The translations under genes and the position numbers were made by a program. From an uncultured Clostridia bacterium (lineage in GTDB: Bacteria > Bacillota > Clostridia > Lachnospirales > CAG-274): a stretch of 64,000 nucleotides of DNA. The notes under the pieces are model-generated. The model searched no databases. It saw nothing but the letters and a program-made list of their open reading frames with translations, and was not told the origin of the DNA. This document shows positions 26,434 to 34,028 of the stretch, piece after piece. The stretch is from NCBI GenBank assembly GCA_947627425.1, contig CANQVZ010000005.1, positions 6,117 through 70,116 on the forward strand, written 5' to 3'. How positions within the stretch are numbered: the stretch's first letter is position 1; each line of letters opens with the position of its first letter.

Positions 26434-26524
26434 AGTAAAAAAATTGAAAAATACTATTTCTATTTTAACAGAAATATGTTATATTTAAAAGTAGAATTTA
26501 ATATTTTTTTTAAGGAGTTTGCAT

Positions 26525-27946
26525 ATGGCTAAAACAATTGATGAAAAAAAGCTGGTAGAGCTTGTGGAATACAGATTAAAGGATGTGCTTCTGACACTTA
26601 TATATGATGTTGCGGACAATGCCGCGTTAAAATCGGAATATGTACTGCCAAAGTGCATATCGGAAATATACGACGACATAAGCAAAGCCTATATAAAGCT
26701 TGGAGATGTATTTGAAACAACGGAAAGGTCGGAGTTTGAGGCAGAGCTTAAGGACATAACGGACAAAATAGTAAAAAGCGCCGTCAATATAAACAGATAT
26801 ACATCCTCCAACGAGGCTCTGGGTCAGAAAGCGCTGCGTATGTATAAGCTTTCGGACATAGAGGAAATAGGAGACGAGGTGCCTCTCAACAACGGCAGAG
26901 TGGCAGAGCTGGTAAAGGGATATGTAAGCGGGCTTAAGGATGACTATGCCGACAACTTCAAGAAGGCGGAAATAATATCCTCTCTCCCGCTTAGAATGAC
27001 AAGAGATCGCTTTGCCGACTATGTAAGGCGCGGTGTAAAGCTGCTTGCAGACGGACTTCCCGAAGGCTTTGCGCAGTCGAGCATTTCGAGACTGAAGGAT
27101 ATATTTTATGCCGACTGTGAAAATGAATTCCAAAAGGACCTTCCTCTTATGTATGAAAAGCTCAAGTCCACGGAGGAGAGCCTTTCGGAGCTTGACAGCG
27201 AGGCGCTTACAGAAGCTATGGATGACATAGACGGCAATTTGAGCGCACTTGGCGAAATGTACAACATTCTTGAGTTTTATTACAGCCACGTTATAGATAT
27301 GAGTATACTTTCGCTCTTTGTTGTGGACTCGGATCTTATATTCGGCGACGATATGGTGCTCAAGGATCTTTACTTTGCGCTTAAGGAAATGCTTTCAACG
27401 GGCGATAAGAGCCTCAAGGATGATATTCTGGAAAGAACGGGCGATGAGATAAGCGACCGTTTTGACAAATTCAGACCGCAGGAGGAGAAAATGCTCAAGC
27501 TTATTAATTCTCTTAAGAGCGAGGAATATGAAGCGCTTGACGAAAACATAAAAACCACACTGAATGTCAGCAATACTATCAACAGTATGTATTCCGGCGA
27601 GCTAAACGAGCGAATTATGCTTGCGGGCGGTGAGGATGAGGACATTGACAAGGCTGTAGATGGTCTTATAGAATATATAAATAATGTCACGGAGAATATG
27701 CAAAACAGCGAAAAAAAGCTTATCAAGCAGATCTTTCTGGGACATATCCCCACGCCTATGTCAAATGAGGAGCTTTGCGAATATTGCGGTTATGCTCTTG
27801 ACGGTATAAACGACAAAAGCATAAGTCTTATGACCTACAGCGATATTTTCCATATCATTGATGATGAGGATGATGAGGATGACGAGCATGAGCATCATCA
27901 CCATCATCATGACCATGAGCATTGCGGCTGCGGGCATGAACATTAA
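26525..27946 (+). CDS. Hypothetical acidic helical protein with a His/Cys-rich C-terminal tail
   Basis: 473 aa. AAGGAG RBS 7 nt upstream of the ATG at 26525. The tail is DDEDDEDDEHEHHHHHHDHEHCGCGHEH. I recognise no family. Confidence 0.7.
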   Translation: MAKTIDEKKLVELVEYRLKDVLLTLIYDVADNAALKSEYVLPKCISEIYDDISKAYIKLGDVFETTERSEFEAELKDITDKIVKSAVNINRYTSSNEALGQKALRMYKLSDIEEIGDEVPLNNGRVAELVKGYVSGLKDDYADNFKKAEIISSLPLRMTRDRFADYVRRGVKLLADGLPEGFAQSSISRLKDIFYADCENEFQKDLPLMYEKLKSTEESLSELDSEALTEAMDDIDGNLSALGEMYNILEFYYSHVIDMSILSLFVVDSDLIFGDDMVLKDLYFALKEMLSTGDKSLKDDILERTGDEISDRFDKFRPQEEKMLKLINSLKSEEYEALDENIKTTLNVSNTINSMYSGELNERIMLAGGEDEDIDKAVDGLIEYINNVTENMQNSEKKLIKQIFLGHIPTPMSNEELCEYCGYALDGINDKSISLMTYSDIFHIIDDEDDEDDEHEHHHHHHDHEHCGCGHEH

Positions 27947-27957
27947 TATTGTTTAAA

Positions 27958-27997
27958 TAAAAAAATTCAGTACCCAATAAAGGATACTGAATTTTTT
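27958..27997. repeat. Left copy of the 40-bp direct repeat (terminator hairpin) bounding the islet
   Basis: TAAAAAAATTCAGTACCCAATAAAGGATACTGAATTTTTT is identical to 31545-31584. It forms the stem TTCAGTA...TACTGAA, flanked by an A-run and a T-run. Confidence 0.9.
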
Positions 27998-28142
27998 CAT
28001 GTTTAAGGCTGTTTAAGTTGCTATGTGTTTAATATATGTTGAAAATACATTAACTATTATACAGCTTTTATATTTGCAACATAAATACATGGTTTATTTA
28101 TATTTTGTTATTATCCAAATGAAAATTTTTAAAAGAATTAAA

Positions 28143-28171
28143 TTGACAAGTTTGTGGAAATATGATAGAAT
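28143..28171 (+). promoter_or_regulatory. Sigma-A type promoter of the HTH-ImmA gene
   Basis: TTGACA, a 17-nt spacer, then TAGAAT. Confidence 0.5.
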
Positions 28172-28235
28172 AAAGTTGTTACCAAATAGGTAAGAAAAAT
28201 AAAAAAATTGAGTTTCAAAGAAAGGGCTATGTGAT

Positions 28236-29324
28236 ATGAATGTTGCAATTGAAACCAAATATCCGGGAATGATTTTGCAGGAAGAACTTTTACATCAGTC
28301 AATGTCACAGAAAGAACTTGCACTTAGAACCGGAGTGACAGAAAAACACATAAGCACTGTGATAAATGGGTTAAAGAATATATCACCATCGTTTGCACGA
28401 AAATTAGACATTGCACTTGGGTCTAAAAAGGGATATTGGCAGGAAATACAAGCCCAATATGATCAGCAGCAAATTGAATATGAAGAAGAAAATGGAATAA
28501 CTCAAAATGAACTTGATATTTTAACACGATTAAAAGATATTATTGACTATTTTATACATAAGGGTATATTGTTTAATAATTGTGGCAAAGCTCAGAAAGT
28601 TATTCAACTTCGTAGCGTACTTCGTGTAAATAATCTAATGTCAATTGAAAAAATCAGCTATAATGCGTCTTATCGTGCTCAAATAAAAAAATGTACCAAT
28701 ATTGATCGATATGTATTGTTTGCATGGCAAAGGTTGTGTGAAATAAATACAGAAAATATTGATGTTAAAAATTCTTTTGACCGTGACAAATTGTGTCAAA
28801 GTATTGAGGATATTAAAAATGTGATGTTTATGCAAGACATTAATGATGGAATATGCCGTCTAAAAGAAATATTTTTGGAATGTGGTGTCGCTTTTGATGT
28901 TGTACGACATTTTCATGGAGCACCTGTTCAAGGATTTATTAAAGAAACGGATTGTGGAAAGATTATTTTATGTCTTACAATAAGAGGAAAAAAAGCAGAT
29001 AGATTTTGGTTTAGTTTGTTTCATGAAGTTGGGCATTTACTAAACGGAGATTATAATATACGCTTTGTGGATTTTAGTTCAGTTAAAAATGAGAATGAGG
29101 AAAAGGCAGACTTGTTTGCGAGAAATATTTTGATTTCCCCTGATAAGTATCGTTTATTTATTGAAAGTGGTAAATACACAAATTTACTTGCGATTAAGCA
29201 ATTTTCAGTGGATGTTCACATTCCATATTGGATAGTTATTGGAAGACTTCATAATGACGAATGGCTTGATTGGAGTACATTTAATGATGAGATACCAAGT
29301 TATAGTTGGGTAGATGAATTTTAA
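28236..29324 (+). CDS. Fusion protein: N-terminal HigA/XRE-type HTH plus C-terminal ImmA/IrrE (COG2856, M78) zinc metallopeptidase
   Basis: The HTH region is PGMILQEELLHQSMSQKELALRTGVTEKHISTVINGLKNISPSFARKLDIALG. The HExxH motif is FSLFHEVGHLLNGD. 362 aa. Confidence 0.85.
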   Translation: MNVAIETKYPGMILQEELLHQSMSQKELALRTGVTEKHISTVINGLKNISPSFARKLDIALGSKKGYWQEIQAQYDQQQIEYEEENGITQNELDILTRLKDIIDYFIHKGILFNNCGKAQKVIQLRSVLRVNNLMSIEKISYNASYRAQIKKCTNIDRYVLFAWQRLCEINTENIDVKNSFDRDKLCQSIEDIKNVMFMQDINDGICRLKEIFLECGVAFDVVRHFHGAPVQGFIKETDCGKIILCLTIRGKKADRFWFSLFHEVGHLLNGDYNIRFVDFSSVKNENEEKADLFARNILISPDKYRLFIESGKYTNLLAIKQFSVDVHIPYWIVIGRLHNDEWLDWSTFNDEIPSYSWVDEF

Positions 29325-29559
29325 TGTAAATGCAACAATATAGGAGGCGGTTAAATTGCCCTATTTAAAAATTGACACAGAGAAAACGCATTGAAAAGCT
29401 GTTGGCGCAGCAAAACAATGCGTTTAGGAAATTATGCTTGCGCATAAATATACTACAACATTAGTATGGCATAGTTTCTTCCCTGTTGTCAATAGACAAT
29501 TTAAACAAAAATATATTTATTAATTTGAATTACCTGCGGGGAAGAAAGGAGTTATACTG

Positions 29560-30315
29560 TTGAAAAAAAACAAAAATCTTGAAAAGCTATTGAATTTGAG
29601 TTATCTTAAATTTGCCAATAAGACTGTTTCTCGTGGTTGTATGGATATGCCAGCCATAAACTGTAATATTTCGGTTTTTCCGGATTATATTGCTTTGTAT
29701 GGGCAGAAAAATCTTTATCACAAGACAGTTCACACAGCAGTTGCGTTCTTTCAATACGATAGTGATTTTGATGGAAAGAATGGCTTGTATTGGGCAATAT
29801 ATTATGATGTAAAAGAACGTTTAAAATATTTTAAAGAACGTTTTAAGGGAGTAAAATATGTTATTATCCCTGATTTTTCAGAACTTGGCGACATTCATAA
29901 AATAGAGAATAATTATCGTCTGTTTAAAGGGCGTATTATTGGATTGTGGTTTATGTTTGAGATTGGTGCGGTTGTTATACCGAACATTACTTTTCCTACT
30001 GCAGAAAGCAAGGATTTTGCTCTCGATGGATATGAAGAATGCTCTGTAGCAGCAATCAGTACCAAAGGTCATATGGATGATTTTGCTGAAAATATGCGAT
30101 TACGTGAAAATATTCGTTTAACTGTTGATAAGTTACCAAACTTAAAGGCATTTATAGTATATGATGTGTGTGGGACAAATGATGCAACTTTTGATACATT
30201 TTCTTATGCCAGAGAAAAGAATATAGAGATAATTATACCGGATAACGCACTTAAAAGTCGCAATATAGCTTTACATGAAAAAAGATGTGAAGTTAAAAAG
30301 GCGGTGATAATATGA
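29560..30315 (+). CDS. Hypothetical protein, possibly DUF4417 family
   Basis: 251 aa. TTG start with a GAAAGGAG RBS. The segment from YVIIPDFSELGD to VVIPNITF resembles my recollection of DUF4417. The family call needs an HMM search. Confidence 0.6.
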   Translation: MKKNKNLEKLLNLSYLKFANKTVSRGCMDMPAINCNISVFPDYIALYGQKNLYHKTVHTAVAFFQYDSDFDGKNGLYWAIYYDVKERLKYFKERFKGVKYVIIPDFSELGDIHKIENNYRLFKGRIIGLWFMFEIGAVVIPNITFPTAESKDFALDGYEECSVAAISTKGHMDDFAENMRLRENIRLTVDKLPNLKAFIVYDVCGTNDATFDTFSYAREKNIEIIIPDNALKSRNIALHEKRCEVKKAVII

Positions 30316-30854
30316 ATCATGCAAATTCGGGACTTGCACATGGGACAAGTGGTTCTCCACAGCTTACTATAGAAAATGGTGAAATGGCAGTTAAAGCAAA
30401 GGAAAATGCAGATAGTGTATTAAAAACATATCCGGGCAATCGAACATACGAAGAATATGTGGATTTAGCAAGAGATCCATCGCACGGGAATAAAGTTCTT
30501 CCTCAGGGACGTAAAGAAAGAATGATTGGTTTAGATCTTGAACATCAAGGGAAACTACATAAAATTGTTCGTGACCCACAAAAGGATAAGGGAGCAGAAT
30601 TTATTGATGTTTATACAGGTATTAAATGGGACATAAAGAGCTTTGTTTCTCATCCTAATGGCTTGAATTCTGCTAAGGGTGCGTTTAGGTTGGATAGAGC
30701 TATTGCAAAAATAGAAAAGGAATTTGTCAATAATCACAATGTAATTATTGATACTCGAAGGCTTGTTAAATCTGATAGACAGGCACTTATGAAAGAAGTA
30801 AATGACAGAGGTTATTCAAATAAAATTATTTGGTATCATAAGAAGGGGGAATAA
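30312..30854 (+). CDS. Hypothetical small protein with a PD-(D/E)xK-like motif arrangement (putative nuclease/toxin)
   Basis: 180 aa. Its start overlaps the upstream stop as ATGA. The residues LDLEHQG, then AEFID, 9 residues, then WDIKS fit an E...D...(D/E)xK pattern. This is motif-level evidence only. Confidence 0.55.
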   Translation: MNHANSGLAHGTSGSPQLTIENGEMAVKAKENADSVLKTYPGNRTYEEYVDLARDPSHGNKVLPQGRKERMIGLDLEHQGKLHKIVRDPQKDKGAEFIDVYTGIKWDIKSFVSHPNGLNSAKGAFRLDRAIAKIEKEFVNNHNVIIDTRRLVKSDRQALMKEVNDRGYSNKIIWYHKKGE

Positions 30855-30857
30855 CGA

Positions 30858-31460
30858 GTGAACAATAATCTTGAAGATATTTTTAAAAGACATAAAATAT
30901 GGCTTGATTCAGAAAACGATGATGGCAGACAACTTGTTCTTGAGAATATTAATATGGAAATACTTACTGATGAACAGATGAAATTGTTATGCGAATCAGT
31001 TCTTATTGAATGTAATTTTACGAATTTGCATCTTAATAATAAAGATTTTTATCATATAGAAATGCATTCATGTACTTTTAATAACAATATATTTGAAGTA
31101 ATATATTTAATTAAAAGTGAGATAAATGATACGCGGTTTACAGATGTAACAATTAATAATTCAAACTTCAGTAATGCAGAATTTTTTGATTGTAATTTTT
31201 CAAACTGTGATATAAAAGATTCAACATTTATAAATGCGGGTGTTTGGAACCCTGTTTTTAGTGAATGTATTTTTGAAAATGTGGATTTTGATAATGCTTA
31301 CTTTGAAAATGTTAGAATATCAAAAACTAAATTTAAAAATCCAATCAACCTTAAAAAGGTAAAAAAACTTACCTTAAACATAGGAACAGATGAAACCCCA
31401 CAGTTATTGAATACAGAGAAGTCAATAGAATGGATTGAAACAAACTTAATATTAAAATAA
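30858..31460 (+). CDS. Pentapeptide repeat-containing protein
   Basis: 200 aa. GTG start 3 nt after the upstream stop, with an AGGGGG RBS. It has consecutive A(D/N)LxX-like pentads, for example CNFTNLHLNNKDFYH, NSNFSNAEFFDCNFSNCDIKDSTF and ENVDFDNAYFENVRI. Confidence 0.85.
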   Translation: MNNNLEDIFKRHKIWLDSENDDGRQLVLENINMEILTDEQMKLLCESVLIECNFTNLHLNNKDFYHIEMHSCTFNNNIFEVIYLIKSEINDTRFTDVTINNSNFSNAEFFDCNFSNCDIKDSTFINAGVWNPVFSECIFENVDFDNAYFENVRISKTKFKNPINLKKVKKLTLNIGTDETPQLLNTEKSIEWIETNLILK

Positions 31461-31544
31461 TGTAATTATTATCCTCAAAGAAGATTACCCACAGAAAAAA
31501 TAGAAAAGAGTGGTTGTATTTCAAATAAAATTTGTTCTTGTTGT

Positions 31545-31584
31545 TAAAAAAATTCAGTACCCAATAAAGGATACTGAATTTTTT
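31545..31584. repeat. Right copy of the 40-bp direct repeat (terminator hairpin) bounding the islet
   Basis: Identical to 27958-27997. It also serves as the terminator between the convergent pentapeptide-repeat and LRR genes. Confidence 0.9.
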
Positions 31585-31614: not shown

Positions 31615-33582
31615 TTATTTTACCTTATAGGTAGCTGTTCTTGTGCTGTCGTCCCATTCAATGGCAACCTCAAGCGCGCTGCCCAAAGCCCTGAACGGTA
31701 CGAACATTCTGTCGTTCACAATCTCGGCTTTAACGCCGTTTTCCATTTCTCTCGGGCTGTTGCCTACGAGCATTATATTACTTCCCGCAGTGAACTTTAT
31801 TACCTTGCTGCCCGTGGTTATTGTGGCTGTCTTTGTTGCCTGATCCCAGCTTACAGCCTTTGAATTGTCGGCGTCCTCAACATCTCCGCCCGCTATCGCA
31901 AGCGCCACAAATCTGAGAGGAACAAGAGTTGAATTGCTTGAAGCCTGAATATAAGCCGCCGAGTCGGTTTCATAGCTCTTGCTGCCTATTGTAATGGCTT
32001 TCTTGCCTATTGCTACCTTTACATCAGCTGAAAGCAGAGCCTCTGTTGTTGTCTCGGTCACGGCTTCTTTGAGCTTTGTTGTTGCTTCGGTGGCTGCCTC
32101 CGTTGTTGTTGTGGAAGTCTTTGCGTTTGATGAACGGCTGGGACCGCTTCCGCCGCCGCCGGAGGTCGTTCTCTTGTATGTAGTTGTCTCTGTGCCCGTT
32201 TCCTTTACAGCTGTAGTTGTTTCCGTGCTTGACTCCGCAACAGTAGTGGTCTGCGGCTTTGTAGTGGGCGCAGCTGTTGTCGGCTGAGTAGTAGGCTCCT
32301 TAGTAGTTGTCTGCGTGGTAGTCTGTGTAGTGGGAGCCTTAGTCGTAGTCTGAGTAGTCTGCGGCTTGGTAGTCGGCGCAGCCGTGGTTGGTGTGGCCGT
32401 AGTCGGCTGAGTAGTGGGCTCCTTAGTAGTTGACTGAGTAGTAGTCTGTGTAGTGGGAGCCTTTGTTGTAGCCTGAGTAGTCTGCGGCTTTGTAGTGGGC
32501 GCAGCTGTAGTCGGCTGAGTAGTAGGCTCCTTTGTAGTTGCTTGAGTAGTTGTCTGTGTCGTTGTAGTAGTCGTAGTTGTGGTGGTTGTCGTTGTAGTCG
32601 TAGTGGTTGTGGTAGTTGTAGTCGTAGCGGGATTCATGTATTCGATTTTGAATCCGTTAGCTATAGCGAAGTCCTCTGCCGCTGACGGCTGCCATACCTT
32701 GAATACGAGCTTTTCTTTGTTACAATTAAGAAATGCGTTTGTATTTATTGACAATACAGAATCGGGTATGGTTATGCTTTCAAGACCATCGCAGCTTGAA
32801 AATGCGCGATCGCCTATAGATATTACGGAATCGGGTATAACAATATCCTTAAGACCATCGCATCCTGAAAAAGCAGATGCTCCTATTGTGATTATTGTGT
32901 CGGGTATCTCCACATCCGTAAGCATTGTACATCCACTAAATGTGCTGTCGGCTATTGTGAGATAATTCTCATTCTTTGGAAGCTTTATGCTGCTGAGCAC
33001 GCTGCAGCTCAAAAATGCACCGCTGCCTATTGCCGCAATGCTGTCCGGGAGATTTATGGAAGCAAGCGACTTACAGCTTTTGAAAGCATCAGAACCGATC
33101 GATGTGATGCCTTCGGGAAGTGTTACCTTTGCAAGTACACTACAGTCTGAGAAAGCACTTCTGTCAAGACTTAAAAGTCCTTCGGAAAAAGTTACGCTTG
33201 CAAGACTATCGCAATTGTAAAAGGCAAGTGAATGAACACTTTTTACGGTAACGCCCTCTATTTCCGAGGGTATGTTTGCAACAACAATGTTTGAATCCGC
33301 ATCCGTTATCTCGCCCGTTGCGGTATCAAATGTAATGCTTCCGCCTGTCACCTGATACTGAACCTTTGTGCTTGCTGCGGCAAGCTCCGTAACATTGTCG
33401 CTCATTACATCGGCTTCGGCGGTCACTTCATTCGCGTCCGCTTCAATTTCCGCCTCGGGAGCGTAAACATCGCTGTCATCGGCAGACACTGCGTTTAAGC
33501 TTGCTCCTATAACGGCGAATGCCAGAGCAAGACTTATCAGTTTTTTAAACTTCATTTTCTTTTCCTCCTTGTTAGTATTCAA
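31615..33582 (-). CDS. Cell-surface protein: signal peptide, BspA-type leucine-rich repeats, Thr-rich linker, and a C-terminal copper amine oxidase N-terminal-like domain
   Basis: LRR_5-like repeats such as IPSEIEGVTVKSVHSLAFYNCDSLASVTF and LPEGITSIGSDAFKSCKSLASINLP. A poly-Thr/TTKEPTTQ linker. The C-terminal segment runs from LVPLRFVALAIAGG to RMFVPFRALGSAL. Confidence 0.85.
   Translation of the reverse strand: MNTNKEEKKMKFKKLISLALAFAVIGASLNAVSADDSDVYAPEAEIEADANEVTAEADVMSDNVTELAAASTKVQYQVTGGSITFDTATGEITDADSNIVVANIPSEIEGVTVKSVHSLAFYNCDSLASVTFSEGLLSLDRSAFSDCSVLAKVTLPEGITSIGSDAFKSCKSLASINLPDSIAAIGSGAFLSCSVLSSIKLPKNENYLTIADSTFSGCTMLTDVEIPDTIITIGASAFSGCDGLKDIVIPDSVISIGDRAFSSCDGLESITIPDSVLSINTNAFLNCNKEKLVFKVWQPSAAEDFAIANGFKIEYMNPATTTTTTTTTTTTTTTTTTTTTTTQTTTQATTKEPTTQPTTAAPTTKPQTTQATTKAPTTQTTTQSTTKEPTTQPTTATPTTAAPTTKPQTTQTTTKAPTTQTTTQTTTKEPTTQPTTAAPTTKPQTTTVAESSTETTTAVKETGTETTTYKRTTSGGGGSGPSRSSNAKTSTTTTEAATEATTKLKEAVTETTTEALLSADVKVAIGKKAITIGSKSYETDSAAYIQASSNSTLVPLRFVALAIAGGDVEDADNSKAVSWDQATKTATITTGSKVIKFTAGSNIMLVGNSPREMENGVKAEIVNDRMFVPFRALGSALEVAIEWDDSTRTATYKVK
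32245..32625 (-). repeat. In-frame tandem repeats encoding the poly-Thr and TTKEPTTQPTTAAPTTKPQ linker
   Basis: A run of about 22 Thr codons is followed by roughly three copies of a ~36-aa (~108-nt) Thr/Pro/Gln unit. Confidence 0.8.
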
Positions 33583-33704: not shown

Positions 33705-34028
33705 ATGAACTTTGGGGAGAAACTCAGCAGTATTCTGGAAAGCAAGGAAATATCGCAGAAGGAATTTGCTTACACATTGAATATTGCACCTTCAACACTC
33801 AACGGCTATATAAAAAACAGGCGCCAGCCCGACTTTGAAACGCTCAGGAATATGGCGTTTGTACTGAATGTTTCGATTGACTTTCTGCTTGAGAATAACG
33901 ACGGCGGAGGTTTTGACATTACCGCCCGTGAAATATCGCTTGTTTCAAAGCTAAGGAATATGGACAAAAAGCAGAGAGACATAATATATGACCTTGTAAA
34001 TATAGTTTCGGTGAGAAATAACAAATAA
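33705..34028 (+). CDS. XRE family HTH transcriptional regulator
   Basis: HTH_3-type sequence SQKEFAYTLNIAPSTLNGYIKNRRQPDFETLRNMAFVLNVSIDFLL. 107 aa. Confidence 0.85.
   Translation: MNFGEKLSSILESKEISQKEFAYTLNIAPSTLNGYIKNRRQPDFETLRNMAFVLNVSIDFLLENNDGGGFDITAREISLVSKLRNMDKKQRDIIYDLVNIVSVRNNK

Follow-up and report, generated by a model that had tools for sequence, protein, structure and literature searches.

The 64,000-nt stretch of DNA from an uncultured Clostridia bacterium analysed here (contig CANQVZ010000005.1; hereafter the window) contains, between two perfect direct repeats, a block of four genes on the forward strand, numbered g1 to g4. We propose that this block is one copy of a compact, widespread and horizontally spread polymorphic toxin–immunity cassette, in which a DUF4417 protein is the constant partner of an exchangeable toxin. 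All coordinates are positions in the window, and the features of the locus are as follows (HTH, helix-turn-helix; SD, Shine–Dalgarno).

27958–27997, no strand: left copy of the perfect 40-nt direct repeat, itself a terminator-like hairpin between A and T runs
28143–28171, + strand: best sigma-70-like promoter of the region, TTGACA-17-TAGAAT with an upstream TG, 11/12 matches (consensus match only)
28236–29324, + strand: g1, HigA/XRE-type HTH fused to an M78/ImmA-type zinc peptidase, 362 aa, the regulator module of the cassette
29325–29559, + strand: conserved structured 5′ leader (spacer) of 235 nt, with hairpin 1, a second hairpin and an anti-SD segment
29384–29425, + strand: leader hairpin 1, helix 1 of the RNAalifold consensus
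29475–29483, + strand: anti-SD segment UUUCUUCCC, predicted to pair with the ribosome-binding region of g2
29545–29551, + strand: SD sequence of g2, AAAGGAG, the 3′ partner in the conserved anti-SD helix
29560–30315, + strand: g2, stand-alone DUF4417 protein with a TTG start, 251 aa, constant partner of the toxin family
30312–30854, + strand: g3, whole toxin gene, 180 aa, its ATG overlapping the g2 stop as ATGA
30312–30419, + strand: N-terminal module (N-module) of g3, residues 1–36, MNHANSGLAHGTSGSPQLTIENGEMAVKAKENADSV, an adaptor-like conserved peptide common to toxins with unrelated C-termini
30444–30854, + strand: toxin domain of g3, residues ~45–180, an uncharacterised alpha/beta domain
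30858–31460, + strand: g4, pentapeptide-repeat protein with a GTG start, 200 aa, predicted cognate immunity protein of the g3-type toxin
31545–31584, no strand: right copy of the perfect 40-nt direct repeat, with the same terminator-like hairpin

The four open reading frames (ORFs) stand in the ORF list as a preliminary description of this DNA had given them, together with the HEVGH motif of g1 (residues 263–267, nt 29022–29036), the structured spacer, the ATGA overlap and the GTG of g4 placed 3 nt past the g3 stop. The AT-rich, precisely bounded block of that description is also borne out: the GC fraction is 0.24–0.36 over approximately 27750–31500 as compared with 0.42–0.54 in the flanks, and the perfect 40-nt repeats enclose a low-GC islet of 3.6 kb. 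This islet carries no integrase or transposase gene. A search for an empty site returned no uninserted counterpart, as the flanking 475-aa protein is without an exact database record. The promoter-like site at 28143–28171 lies 65 nt 5′ of g1. Since g2, g3 and g4 have many homologues at 50–80% identity in the same gene order, they are real genes rather than chance ORFs.

Some 40 proteins resemble g3 over its full length, at 50–80% identity, and about 27 others match it in the first ~32 residues only (MNHANSGLAHGTSGSPQLTLENGEMAAKAKENE), at 70–90% identity, before continuing into unrelated C-termini that include Ntox50, AHH, Tox-GHH and a CxxC deaminase-like domain. Because homologues share either the whole length or the N-module alone, and because one protein, P0030, shares the C-terminal domain alone, g3 is a two-part protein. 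The N-module comprises approximately 35 residues, contains a conserved …SGLAHGTSGSPQ… stretch and has no Pfam match. Its census, based on a profile search of 1.84 billion representative proteins, yielded 125 clusters in which the module forms residues 1–36 of proteins of 33–280 aa; the sole exception is a 677-aa repeat protein that is probably spurious, and apart from it the module was found neither within large delivery proteins nor at internal positions. A word-indexed search with the N-module alignment gave fragments of 41–77 aa only and yielded no census. About one quarter of 54 full-length representatives carry a known domain behind the module (DUF6883, Ntox50, EndoU, AHH, Ntox28, DUF4258 or PBECR1), and the recognisable toxin domains in this position all act on nucleic acids. 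No Pfam family covers approximately three quarters of the toxin domains linked to the N-module, nor the majority of the corresponding immunity proteins; together they make up a sizeable pool of candidate new domains. These comparisons argue that g3 is a small polymorphic toxin composed of a conserved N-module and a swappable C-terminal domain. The earlier view of g3 as a small nuclease-like effector accordingly holds as far as its being a toxin is concerned, but 'nuclease-like' does not do justice to this two-part construction.

In the structural model of g3 (pLDDT 81), residues 1–23 are disordered and residues 20–35 form a helix, while residues 45–180 (pLDDT > 87) fold into an alpha-beta-beta-beta-alpha-beta-alpha-beta domain. 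Ten residues of this domain are invariant (E69, R70, E77, R87, D88, W106, D107, K109, E137 and D147) and D99 is nearly so; W106, D107 and K109, which belong to a 'WDIKS' motif, do not vary in 26 homologues. Neither Pfam, NCBIfam, PHROGs nor PADLOC gave a match to g3, and sequence and profile searches of the PDB returned nothing. With Foldseek, no significant match was obtained against the PDB (best E 0.11); the best value against BFVD, 1.3e-3, was also sub-threshold, in a list with many endonuclease-like, Vsr, VRR-NUC, DUF2726 and restriction-enzyme entries. The PD-(D/E)xK label previously attached to g3 is thus not backed by any significant sequence or fold match in Pfam, the PDB or Foldseek. 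The residues D88, D107 and K109, together with D99, and the topology of the model are compatible with a PD-(D/E)xK hairpin, and a nuclease assignment is plausible but unproven. Recurrent weak matches to AAA_33 were set aside, since they cover only the C-terminal beta-alpha-beta segment and g3 has no P-loop. In P0030, the g3 toxin domain stands behind a type IV pilin-like N-terminus (prepilin N_methyl), which may point to pilus-type display or export in another organism.

The gene that follows the toxin varies together with it. When the toxin C-termini were grouped into 16 clusters and the next genes into 18, 154 pairs of loci had the same toxin and the same next gene, 19 the same toxin and a different next gene, and 1367 differed in both, whereas not one pair combined different toxins with the same next gene. 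Toxins of the g3 type (toxin cluster 4) are always followed by a pentapeptide protein of ~200 aa (immunity cluster 4), and this pairing is kept in locus L010, where the toxin and the pentapeptide protein are 52% and 31% identical, respectively, to those of the window. In a metagenome search with the g4 alignment, all seven readable loci had the g4 relative directly 3′ of a g3-type toxin, and no orphan g4 immunity gene was found in this small sample. Because the next gene covaries so strictly with toxin type, g4 can be regarded as the cognate immunity protein of the g3-type toxin. The built-in immunity role that had been suggested for the pentapeptide protein is thereby upheld, which cannot be said of the accompanying idea of topoisomerase protection. 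Indeed, g4 matches the generic Pfam models (Pentapeptide_4, E = 2.4e-15; Pentapeptide, E = 2.7e-12) and only these; it falls far below the NCBIfam cut-offs for Qnr (29.9 bits vs 240) and MfpA (18.3 vs 360). Its repeats are flanked by conserved non-repeat extensions at both the N- and the C-terminus.

Some loci retain what look like remains of earlier cassettes. Locus L006 (8524–10831) has two paralogous immunity genes followed by a 5′-truncated Tox-GHH gene that retains 'QLTIEN' of the N-module and is accompanied by its own immunity gene and a DUF7674 protein. In L106 (1427–2690) and L107 (3331–4594), a g3-type toxin and its immunity gene lie behind a DUF4417 remnant of 32 aa. Such displaced, 5′-truncated cassettes are most simply read as signs of cassette turnover.

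By contrast with the toxins, the DUF4417 protein is constant. The assignment of g2 to this family, proposed in the preliminary description, is firm (PF14386, 51 bits against a gathering cut-off of 28.9), and 200 homologues were collected. The identity of the N-module tracks that of DUF4417 (ordinary least squares slope 0.96, Spearman 0.52) and is independent of the type of toxin (coefficient 0.009); between them, the 15 loci with a DUF4417 more than 68% identical to that of the window carry nine toxin types. Since the N-module follows DUF4417 identity rather than toxin type, the two form a constant, co-evolving unit, and the toxin domain with its immunity gene makes up the unit that is exchanged. 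Moreover, as DUF4417 remains constant while toxins vary, it behaves, within a polymorphic toxin family, as an adaptor or core subunit and not as the effector it had been taken for.

The model of g2 (pLDDT 85.5, pTM 0.84) consists of alternating beta and alpha elements. Its best Foldseek matches are TIM barrels with TM scores of at most 0.41, and the weak fold matches include Endo IV (E = 0.05) and glycoside-hydrolase TIM barrels, so that the fold shows a weak similarity to beta/alpha barrels; no relative was found in the PDB by sequence or profile search. The invariant polar residues of the family (D42, D105, S107, E116, R120, S167, K169, D202 and N229) appear, on the secondary-structure map, to lie at or just past the C-terminal ends of strands. 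Active sites of TIM-barrel enzymes are situated at the C-terminal strand ends. Annotated phages contain only distant DUF4417 relatives (25–33% identity), some within proteins that bear a DNA methylase or ParB-like annotation, others encoded by gene 1 of mycobacteriophages. A DpdA/TGT-like nature was considered because the fusion of phage DUF4417 to ParB-like domains recalls DpdB/DpdA; the top 50 fold matches of DUF4417 include no TGT. In the searchable literature, DUF4417 is mentioned only as a domain of unexplained role fused to phage ParB-like proteins, and we found no description there tying it to toxins.

To survey genomes, one genome per species was scanned with the DUF4417 alignment, giving 101 loci of which 80 were kept. 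In 71 of these 80 loci, an N-module ORF detectable with a hidden Markov model has its start between −19 and +41 nt from where the DUF4417 match ends; four more have visibly divergent N-modules. The exact quartet of the window (fused XRE::M78 regulator, DUF4417, g3-type toxin, pentapeptide protein) recurs in L014, L027 and L032, and the generalised order in other genomes; the conserved toxin-type operon anticipated in the preliminary description is therefore present. Cassettes occur in Bacillota, Actinomycetota, Fibrobacterota, Bacteroidota, Spirochaetota and Pseudomonadota, nearly all of them of gut or rumen origin, and isolates that carry one include Ruminococcus flavefaciens FD-1, Eubacterium ruminantium ATCC 17233, Lachnospira multipara, Fibrobacter intestinalis ATCC 43854 and Pseudoscardovia radai. 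Architecture and toxin clusters are shared between monoderm and diderm isolates, namely R. flavefaciens FD-1, E. ruminantium, L. multipara and F. intestinalis. A comparison of L035 with L040, L046, L052 and L058 revealed contigs labelled 'Bacteroidaceae' or 'bacterium' with GC-rich leaders and N-modules near-identical to those of a Coriobacteriaceae isolate. The Bacteroidota assignments call for caution, because very recent transfer or mis-binning explains these near-identical contigs. Viral contigs yielded one locus in 2.9 million, and plasmids one weak match.

Nine genomic contexts were sampled. In L010 (6626–9144), a complete cassette of the c1 type is embedded in a BREX locus, with PglX and PglZ on either side, and consists of proteins of 124 and 85 aa, DUF4417, a g3-type toxin and its pentapeptide immunity protein. 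In L001–5, it is situated in a serine-recombinase element adjoining a type I restriction–modification (R-M) shufflon. In L092–95, it is found among Schlafen/AlbA ATPases, RlaP, YafQ/ParE, Fic/VbhA and IS605 TnpB, and in L096–99 it adjoins an SNF2/SWIM helicase 4 kb from a type I R-M system. In L006, L100, L102, L103 and the window, the cassette is solitary, with housekeeping genes on either side. None of the nine contexts includes a secretion, lysis or mobility gene belonging to the cassette, and no signal peptide or transmembrane segment was detected in DUF4417 or the toxins. As a separate observation, the type I R-M locus of L001–L005 (10795–16400), with several HsdS genes or fragments and a tyrosine recombinase, is shufflon-like and phase-variable; contigs that are otherwise identical differ in how it is arranged. 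In F. intestinalis (L068, 4975–6492), what looked like an N-module protein of 505 aa proved to be an artefact, an EndoU-type toxin being fused with its immunity gene by a stretch of masked Ns. Just 3′ of this region is a gene for a DNA methyltransferase.

Expression of the cassette would seem to be controlled at two levels. At the first stands g1, with an HTH at residues ~9–81 (HTH_3, E = 6.1e-8; HigA TIGR02607, E = 4.8e-13) and a peptidase domain (Peptidase_M78, E = 1.3e-5). Its best PADLOC match is PD-Lambda-2_B (1.3e-22, residues 20–352 against profile positions 70–386 of 402), followed by RmrA (3.5e-6, with RmrA values ranging up to 0.016) and capP (9e-6). An XRE-type HTH and an HExxH peptidase are encoded upstream on the same strand in about 42 loci: they are fused into a protein of ~360 aa in about 14, including the window, L012, L014, L027 and L032, and split in the remainder into an HTH protein of 100–140 aa and a peptidase of 170–200 aa. 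The split pair of L092 has capH (9.5e-11) and capP (5.6e-11) as its best PADLOC matches. In a minority of loci and in the BREX-embedded copy, an unrelated protein of ~125–190 aa (c1), without Pfam or PADLOC match, replaces the XRE/M78 regulator. The regulator module is thus exchangeable, being fused, split and CapH/CapP-like, or replaced by c1. Since it is replaceable, and since a dedicated immunity gene is already present, g1 is unlikely to be an antitoxin, and a 'peptidase-gated' operon in that sense is improbable.

The second level is the spacer between g1 and g2. Its predicted RNA fold is markedly stable (z = −4.41 against dinucleotide shuffles), and in the minimum-free-energy structure of the window UUUCUUCCC (29475–29483) pairs with GGGAAGAAAGG, which overlaps the SD sequence. 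The peptidase gene and DUF4417 are 226–330 nt apart in most loci carrying an XRE/M78 regulator. From 16 aligned spacers, RNAalifold derived a consensus of three helices, hairpin 1, a second hairpin and a long-range helix in which a conserved CUCCUUU pairs with AAAGGAG, the SD sequence of DUF4417. In this consensus 96.2% of cells are paired, as compared with 41–61% after sliding of the partners, the anti-SD/SD helix alone reaching 95.5%; seven pairs are changed on both sides, a number equalled in 1 of 500 shuffles, all these counts referring to a structure derived from the same alignment of related sequences. Many of the single-sided changes are AU↔GU, which favours pairing in the sense-strand RNA. 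The helix is thus predicted to occlude the ribosome-binding site of DUF4417. The AAAGGAG lies 8 nt 5′ of the TTG start, and this weak start is kept in close relatives (spacer alignment columns ~238–243), which points to selection for weak translation of DUF4417 and of the toxin translationally coupled to it.

Other elements may reside in the leader. The spacers of close relatives contain a palindrome, GTTATGAT-nT-AATCATAAC, that includes an extended −10-like TGATATAAT; it is possibly an additional DNA operator or promoter, which would be compatible with the RNA reading. A short ORF with a TTG start at 29355–29393 (MPYLKIDTEKTH*), preceded by AGGAGG, ends in the 5′ arm of hairpin 1, and 11 of 16 close relatives have comparable ORFs ending in …KTH*. 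A leader-peptide attenuator would be possible on this basis; the leader peptide was dropped as a candidate because an ORF ending in hairpin 1 occurs in just those 11 of 16.

How does the cassette relate to systems already described? PADLOC v2 matches g1 only, g2–g4 giving no match to any named defence system, and we found no named system for this gene set in the literature. The earlier statement that no described system is known to combine these genes therefore stands, and the cassette is, apparently, an undescribed member of the polymorphic toxin–immunity kind with an unprecedented constant partner, DUF4417. It resembles polymorphic toxin systems such as CdiA-CT/CdiI, Rhs, MafB and LXG (Zhang, de Souza, Anantharaman, Iyer & Aravind 2012, PMC3482391) in joining a constant N-terminus to variable C-terminal nuclease or deaminase domains, in the use of EndoU, AHH, GHH, Ntox50 and Ntox28, in having the cognate immunity gene directly downstream, and in displaced, 5′-truncated orphan cassettes that retain a short stretch of the constant region. 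It differs from them in that the constant part amounts to only ~35 residues of a 140–200 aa protein, coupling of the toxin to a DUF4417 gene that stands separately is obligatory, the operon has a structured leader and an upstream XRE/M78 switch, the arrangement is unchanged across monoderm and diderm phyla, and there is no link to known delivery routes. Of four hallmarks of polymorphic toxins, three are present in the cassette, the fourth, a trafficking domain or link to a secretion system, being absent; none of the trafficking routes catalogued in PMC3482391 (type II, V, VI and VII secretion systems, that is T2SS, T5SS, T6SS and T7SS, as well as PVC, MuF and others) fits it.

The regulator calls to mind a different set of systems. 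In the CapH/CapP pairs of cyclic-oligonucleotide-based anti-phage signalling (CBASS) and other immune operons, which are documented switches, as in ImmR/ImmA of ICEBs1 and DdrO/IrrE, the HTH and M78 peptidase genes also lie directly upstream of the operon presumed to be controlled. In the window, however, the two are fused and the HTH is of the HigA type, the operon is of the toxin–immunity kind rather than a known immune system, and an RNA leader is added; cleavage and sensing of single-stranded DNA may be envisaged here by analogy only. The defence systems RosmerTA and PD-lambda-2, too, include ImmA-type proteins. Over nearly its full length g1 resembles the B component of PD-lambda-2 (Vassallo et al. 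2022, PMC9519451), with its HigA-like HTH and M78 domain, but the cassette lacks the HigB-like A and the P4-antitoxin-like C components, its own partner genes being unrelated: there is no HigB-like ORF in 27998–28235 and no PADLOC match to A, and g2, g3 and g4 have no PD-Lambda-2 match at E ≤ 0.1. RosmerTA (RmrT/RmrA; Millman et al. 2022; PMC10440598), an anti-phage system whose RmrA component the preliminary description named correctly, likewise places an HTH and ImmA-type peptidase gene beside highly diverse toxins. It is, however, a two-gene system with RmrA as antitoxin, in contrast to the covarying immunity protein and constant DUF4417 of the cassette; RmrT has no PADLOC match in the cassette and the RmrA matches of g1 are weak (at least 3.5e-6). 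Membership of either system is rejected because the partner components are lacking.

Two further likenesses deserve mention. As in systems built on effector-associated domains (EADs; Kaur, Burroughs, Iyer & Aravind 2020, PMC7159879), a short constant module seems to tether fast-varying effectors to a constant core. EADs, however, pair homotypically with a copy on a core NTPase, whereas DUF4417, the core of the cassette, contains no copy of the N-module and is not an NTPase, and immunity proteins are present. With Qnr, MfpA, AlbG and McbG, g4 shares its pentapeptide repeats, and by analogy a DNA-shaped decoy blocking a DNA-binding toxin is plausible; the partner of g4, unlike theirs, is one specific toxin domain rather than a gyrase poison.

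These features can be accommodated in more than one biological role. We favour, with a probability of roughly 0.55, action inside the producer cell as a toxin–antitoxin (TA)-like module of abortive infection or addiction, because the distribution is independent of envelope type, no export feature was found, the regulator is of a defence type, and cassettes occur in BREX, R-M and TA-island settings. In such a scheme, the HTH domain would repress the operon. DNA damage or phage-derived single-stranded DNA would activate the M78 peptidase, and, by analogy with ImmA/ImmR and CapP/CapH, the HTH would be cleaved and transcription would rise. The leader and the weak TTG start would hold basal levels of DUF4417 and toxin low. 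DUF4417 would bind the disordered N-module of the toxin and, as sensor, activator or enzymatic partner, would decide when the toxin escapes its immunity protein, while the pentapeptide protein would keep the toxin inactive, plausibly as a DNA mimic. Once freed, the toxin would attack nucleic acid inside the producer; that of the window would probably be a nuclease blocked by the DNA-mimicking pentapeptide protein.

Several points weigh against an intracellular role. Intercellular polymorphic toxins are classically marked by dedicated and duplicated immunity genes together with displaced orphan toxin cassettes, and the prepilin fusion of P0030 hints at extracellular use of the g3 domain elsewhere. 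Defence systems with swappable effectors usually do without immunity proteins. If toxin and immunity protein are co-induced, it is hard to see how the toxin would win. The part given to DUF4417 is one that we purely infer, and PADLOC v2 has no model for g2–g4, so that there is no experimental precedent. No strong or convincing promoter was found in the spacer of the window. Finally, defence or TA islands account for only about four of the nine sampled contexts, the others being solitary islets.

Alternatively, the cassette may serve antagonism between cells, as a bacteriocin-like or contact-delivered polymorphic toxin in which the N-module would be an export or loading signal and DUF4417 an adaptor, export or release factor; stress-induced expression would then precede release, and the immunity protein would shield sister cells. 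We regard this as unlikely overall, albeit the most serious competitor. The constant N-terminus, the covarying and duplicated immunity genes and the orphan cassettes speak for it, as do C-terminal nuclease and deaminase domains that are also used by T5SS, T6SS, T7SS and MuF toxins, the g3 domain on the prepilin-type N-terminus of P0030, the confinement of the family to dense gut and rumen communities, and the glycoside-hydrolase TIM barrels among the weak fold matches of DUF4417. Regulation of a DNA-damage type would find a parallel in colicin operons; colicins and pyocins are SOS-induced. Against delivery to other cells, however, stand the lack of signal peptides and transmembrane segments in DUF4417 and the toxins, the lack of secretion, lysis or receptor-binding genes in the nine contexts, and a 35-residue module that is too short for receptor binding plus translocation. 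Furthermore, the same module and toxin clusters occur in monoderm and diderm phyla, which argues against an envelope-specific route, the module is absent from large delivery proteins, and no orphan g4 immunity gene was found.

A purely selfish addiction cassette, acting through post-segregational killing without benefit to the host and with DUF4417 serving insertion or maintenance of the element on DNA, seems improbable. It would suit the compactness and low GC of the islets, the perfect repeats of 40 nt that flank them and their lack of mobility genes, as well as the solitary insertions between housekeeping genes in several genomes, and the fusion of phage DUF4417 to proteins annotated as ParB-like or DNA methylase hints at a DNA-directed activity. 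Addiction alone, however, leaves unexplained the fast turnover of toxin domains with its orphan cassettes, the elaborate stress-type regulator and leader, and the repeated placement inside defence loci; in addition, the cassette is nearly absent from plasmids and viral contigs, the usual homes of addiction modules. The initial model of a RosmerTA- or PD-lambda-2-like peptidase-gated operon, with g1 as antitoxin or gate and DUF4417 and g3 as effectors, could invoke the full-length PD-Lambda-2_B match and the weak RmrA match of g1, the very diverse toxins partnered by RmrA-type proteins (PMC10440598), and the toxicity of PD-lambda-2B itself in a system that needs extra components (PMC9519451), but it has little chance of being correct, since a HigB-like gene, a P4-antitoxin-like gene and an RmrT match are all missing, DUF4417 is constant while toxins vary, and the regulator is swapped between closely related cassettes and absent from the BREX copy, whereas immunity covaries strictly.

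It is tempting to take the favoured intracellular reading and its intercellular competitor one step further. DUF4417 may be an enzyme or sensor onto which the disordered N-terminal peptide of the toxins docks, and thus a new, envelope-independent means of arming or releasing polymorphic toxins, whether in an anti-phage system with swappable effector and immunity protein or as a delivery route common to monoderm and diderm gut bacteria; in the family there would be about a hundred toxin and immunity domains still to be characterised, among them a pentapeptide DNA mimic acting as nuclease inhibitor. We put this forward tentatively, at somewhat less than even odds. If the cassette reading is true, it supplies the first functional context for DUF4417 and adds to the polymorphic-toxin catalogue a constant module that spans the monoderm/diderm divide with no known secretion machine attached. 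Guilt by association would flag about a hundred unannotated toxin domains and immunity proteins of gut and rumen bacteria, and a pentapeptide-repeat protein serving as toxin-specific immunity would extend the DNA-mimic idea past topoisomerase protection. The cassette may also be a further example of CapH/CapP-type control, here combined with an RNA leader. More generally, it raises the question of how such toxins are armed in the absence of a secretion system, and bears on whether toxin–immunity cassettes of the polymorphic type also serve as intracellular defence or addiction modules.

The immediate neighbours of the islet are housekeeping genes, encoding an AlaX-type editing protein, an MtaB-type radical-SAM enzyme, a BspA-type leucine-rich-repeat (LRR) surface protein, a diacylglycerol (DAG)-kinase-like protein and phosphoglycerate kinase (PGK). 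Directly upstream, the 475-aa protein encoded at 26519–27946 (+ strand) has a His-rich tail (…DEHEHHHHHHDHEHCGCGHEH) and belongs to no confident family. A match to the Rfam Thr_leader family at 27880–28000 (31 bits against a threshold of 55) is attributed to chance, being probably a spurious product of the run of His codons and the terminator hairpin, and a sub-threshold match to mir-598 was dismissed in the same way. Downstream, 31615–33582 (− strand) encodes the BspA-type LRR surface protein, which contains a Thr/Pro-rich repeat region of ~200 aa and a Cu_amine_oxidN1 domain. Farther on, 33705–34028 (+ strand) encodes a stand-alone XRE-family HTH protein of 107 aa that is unrelated to the islet.

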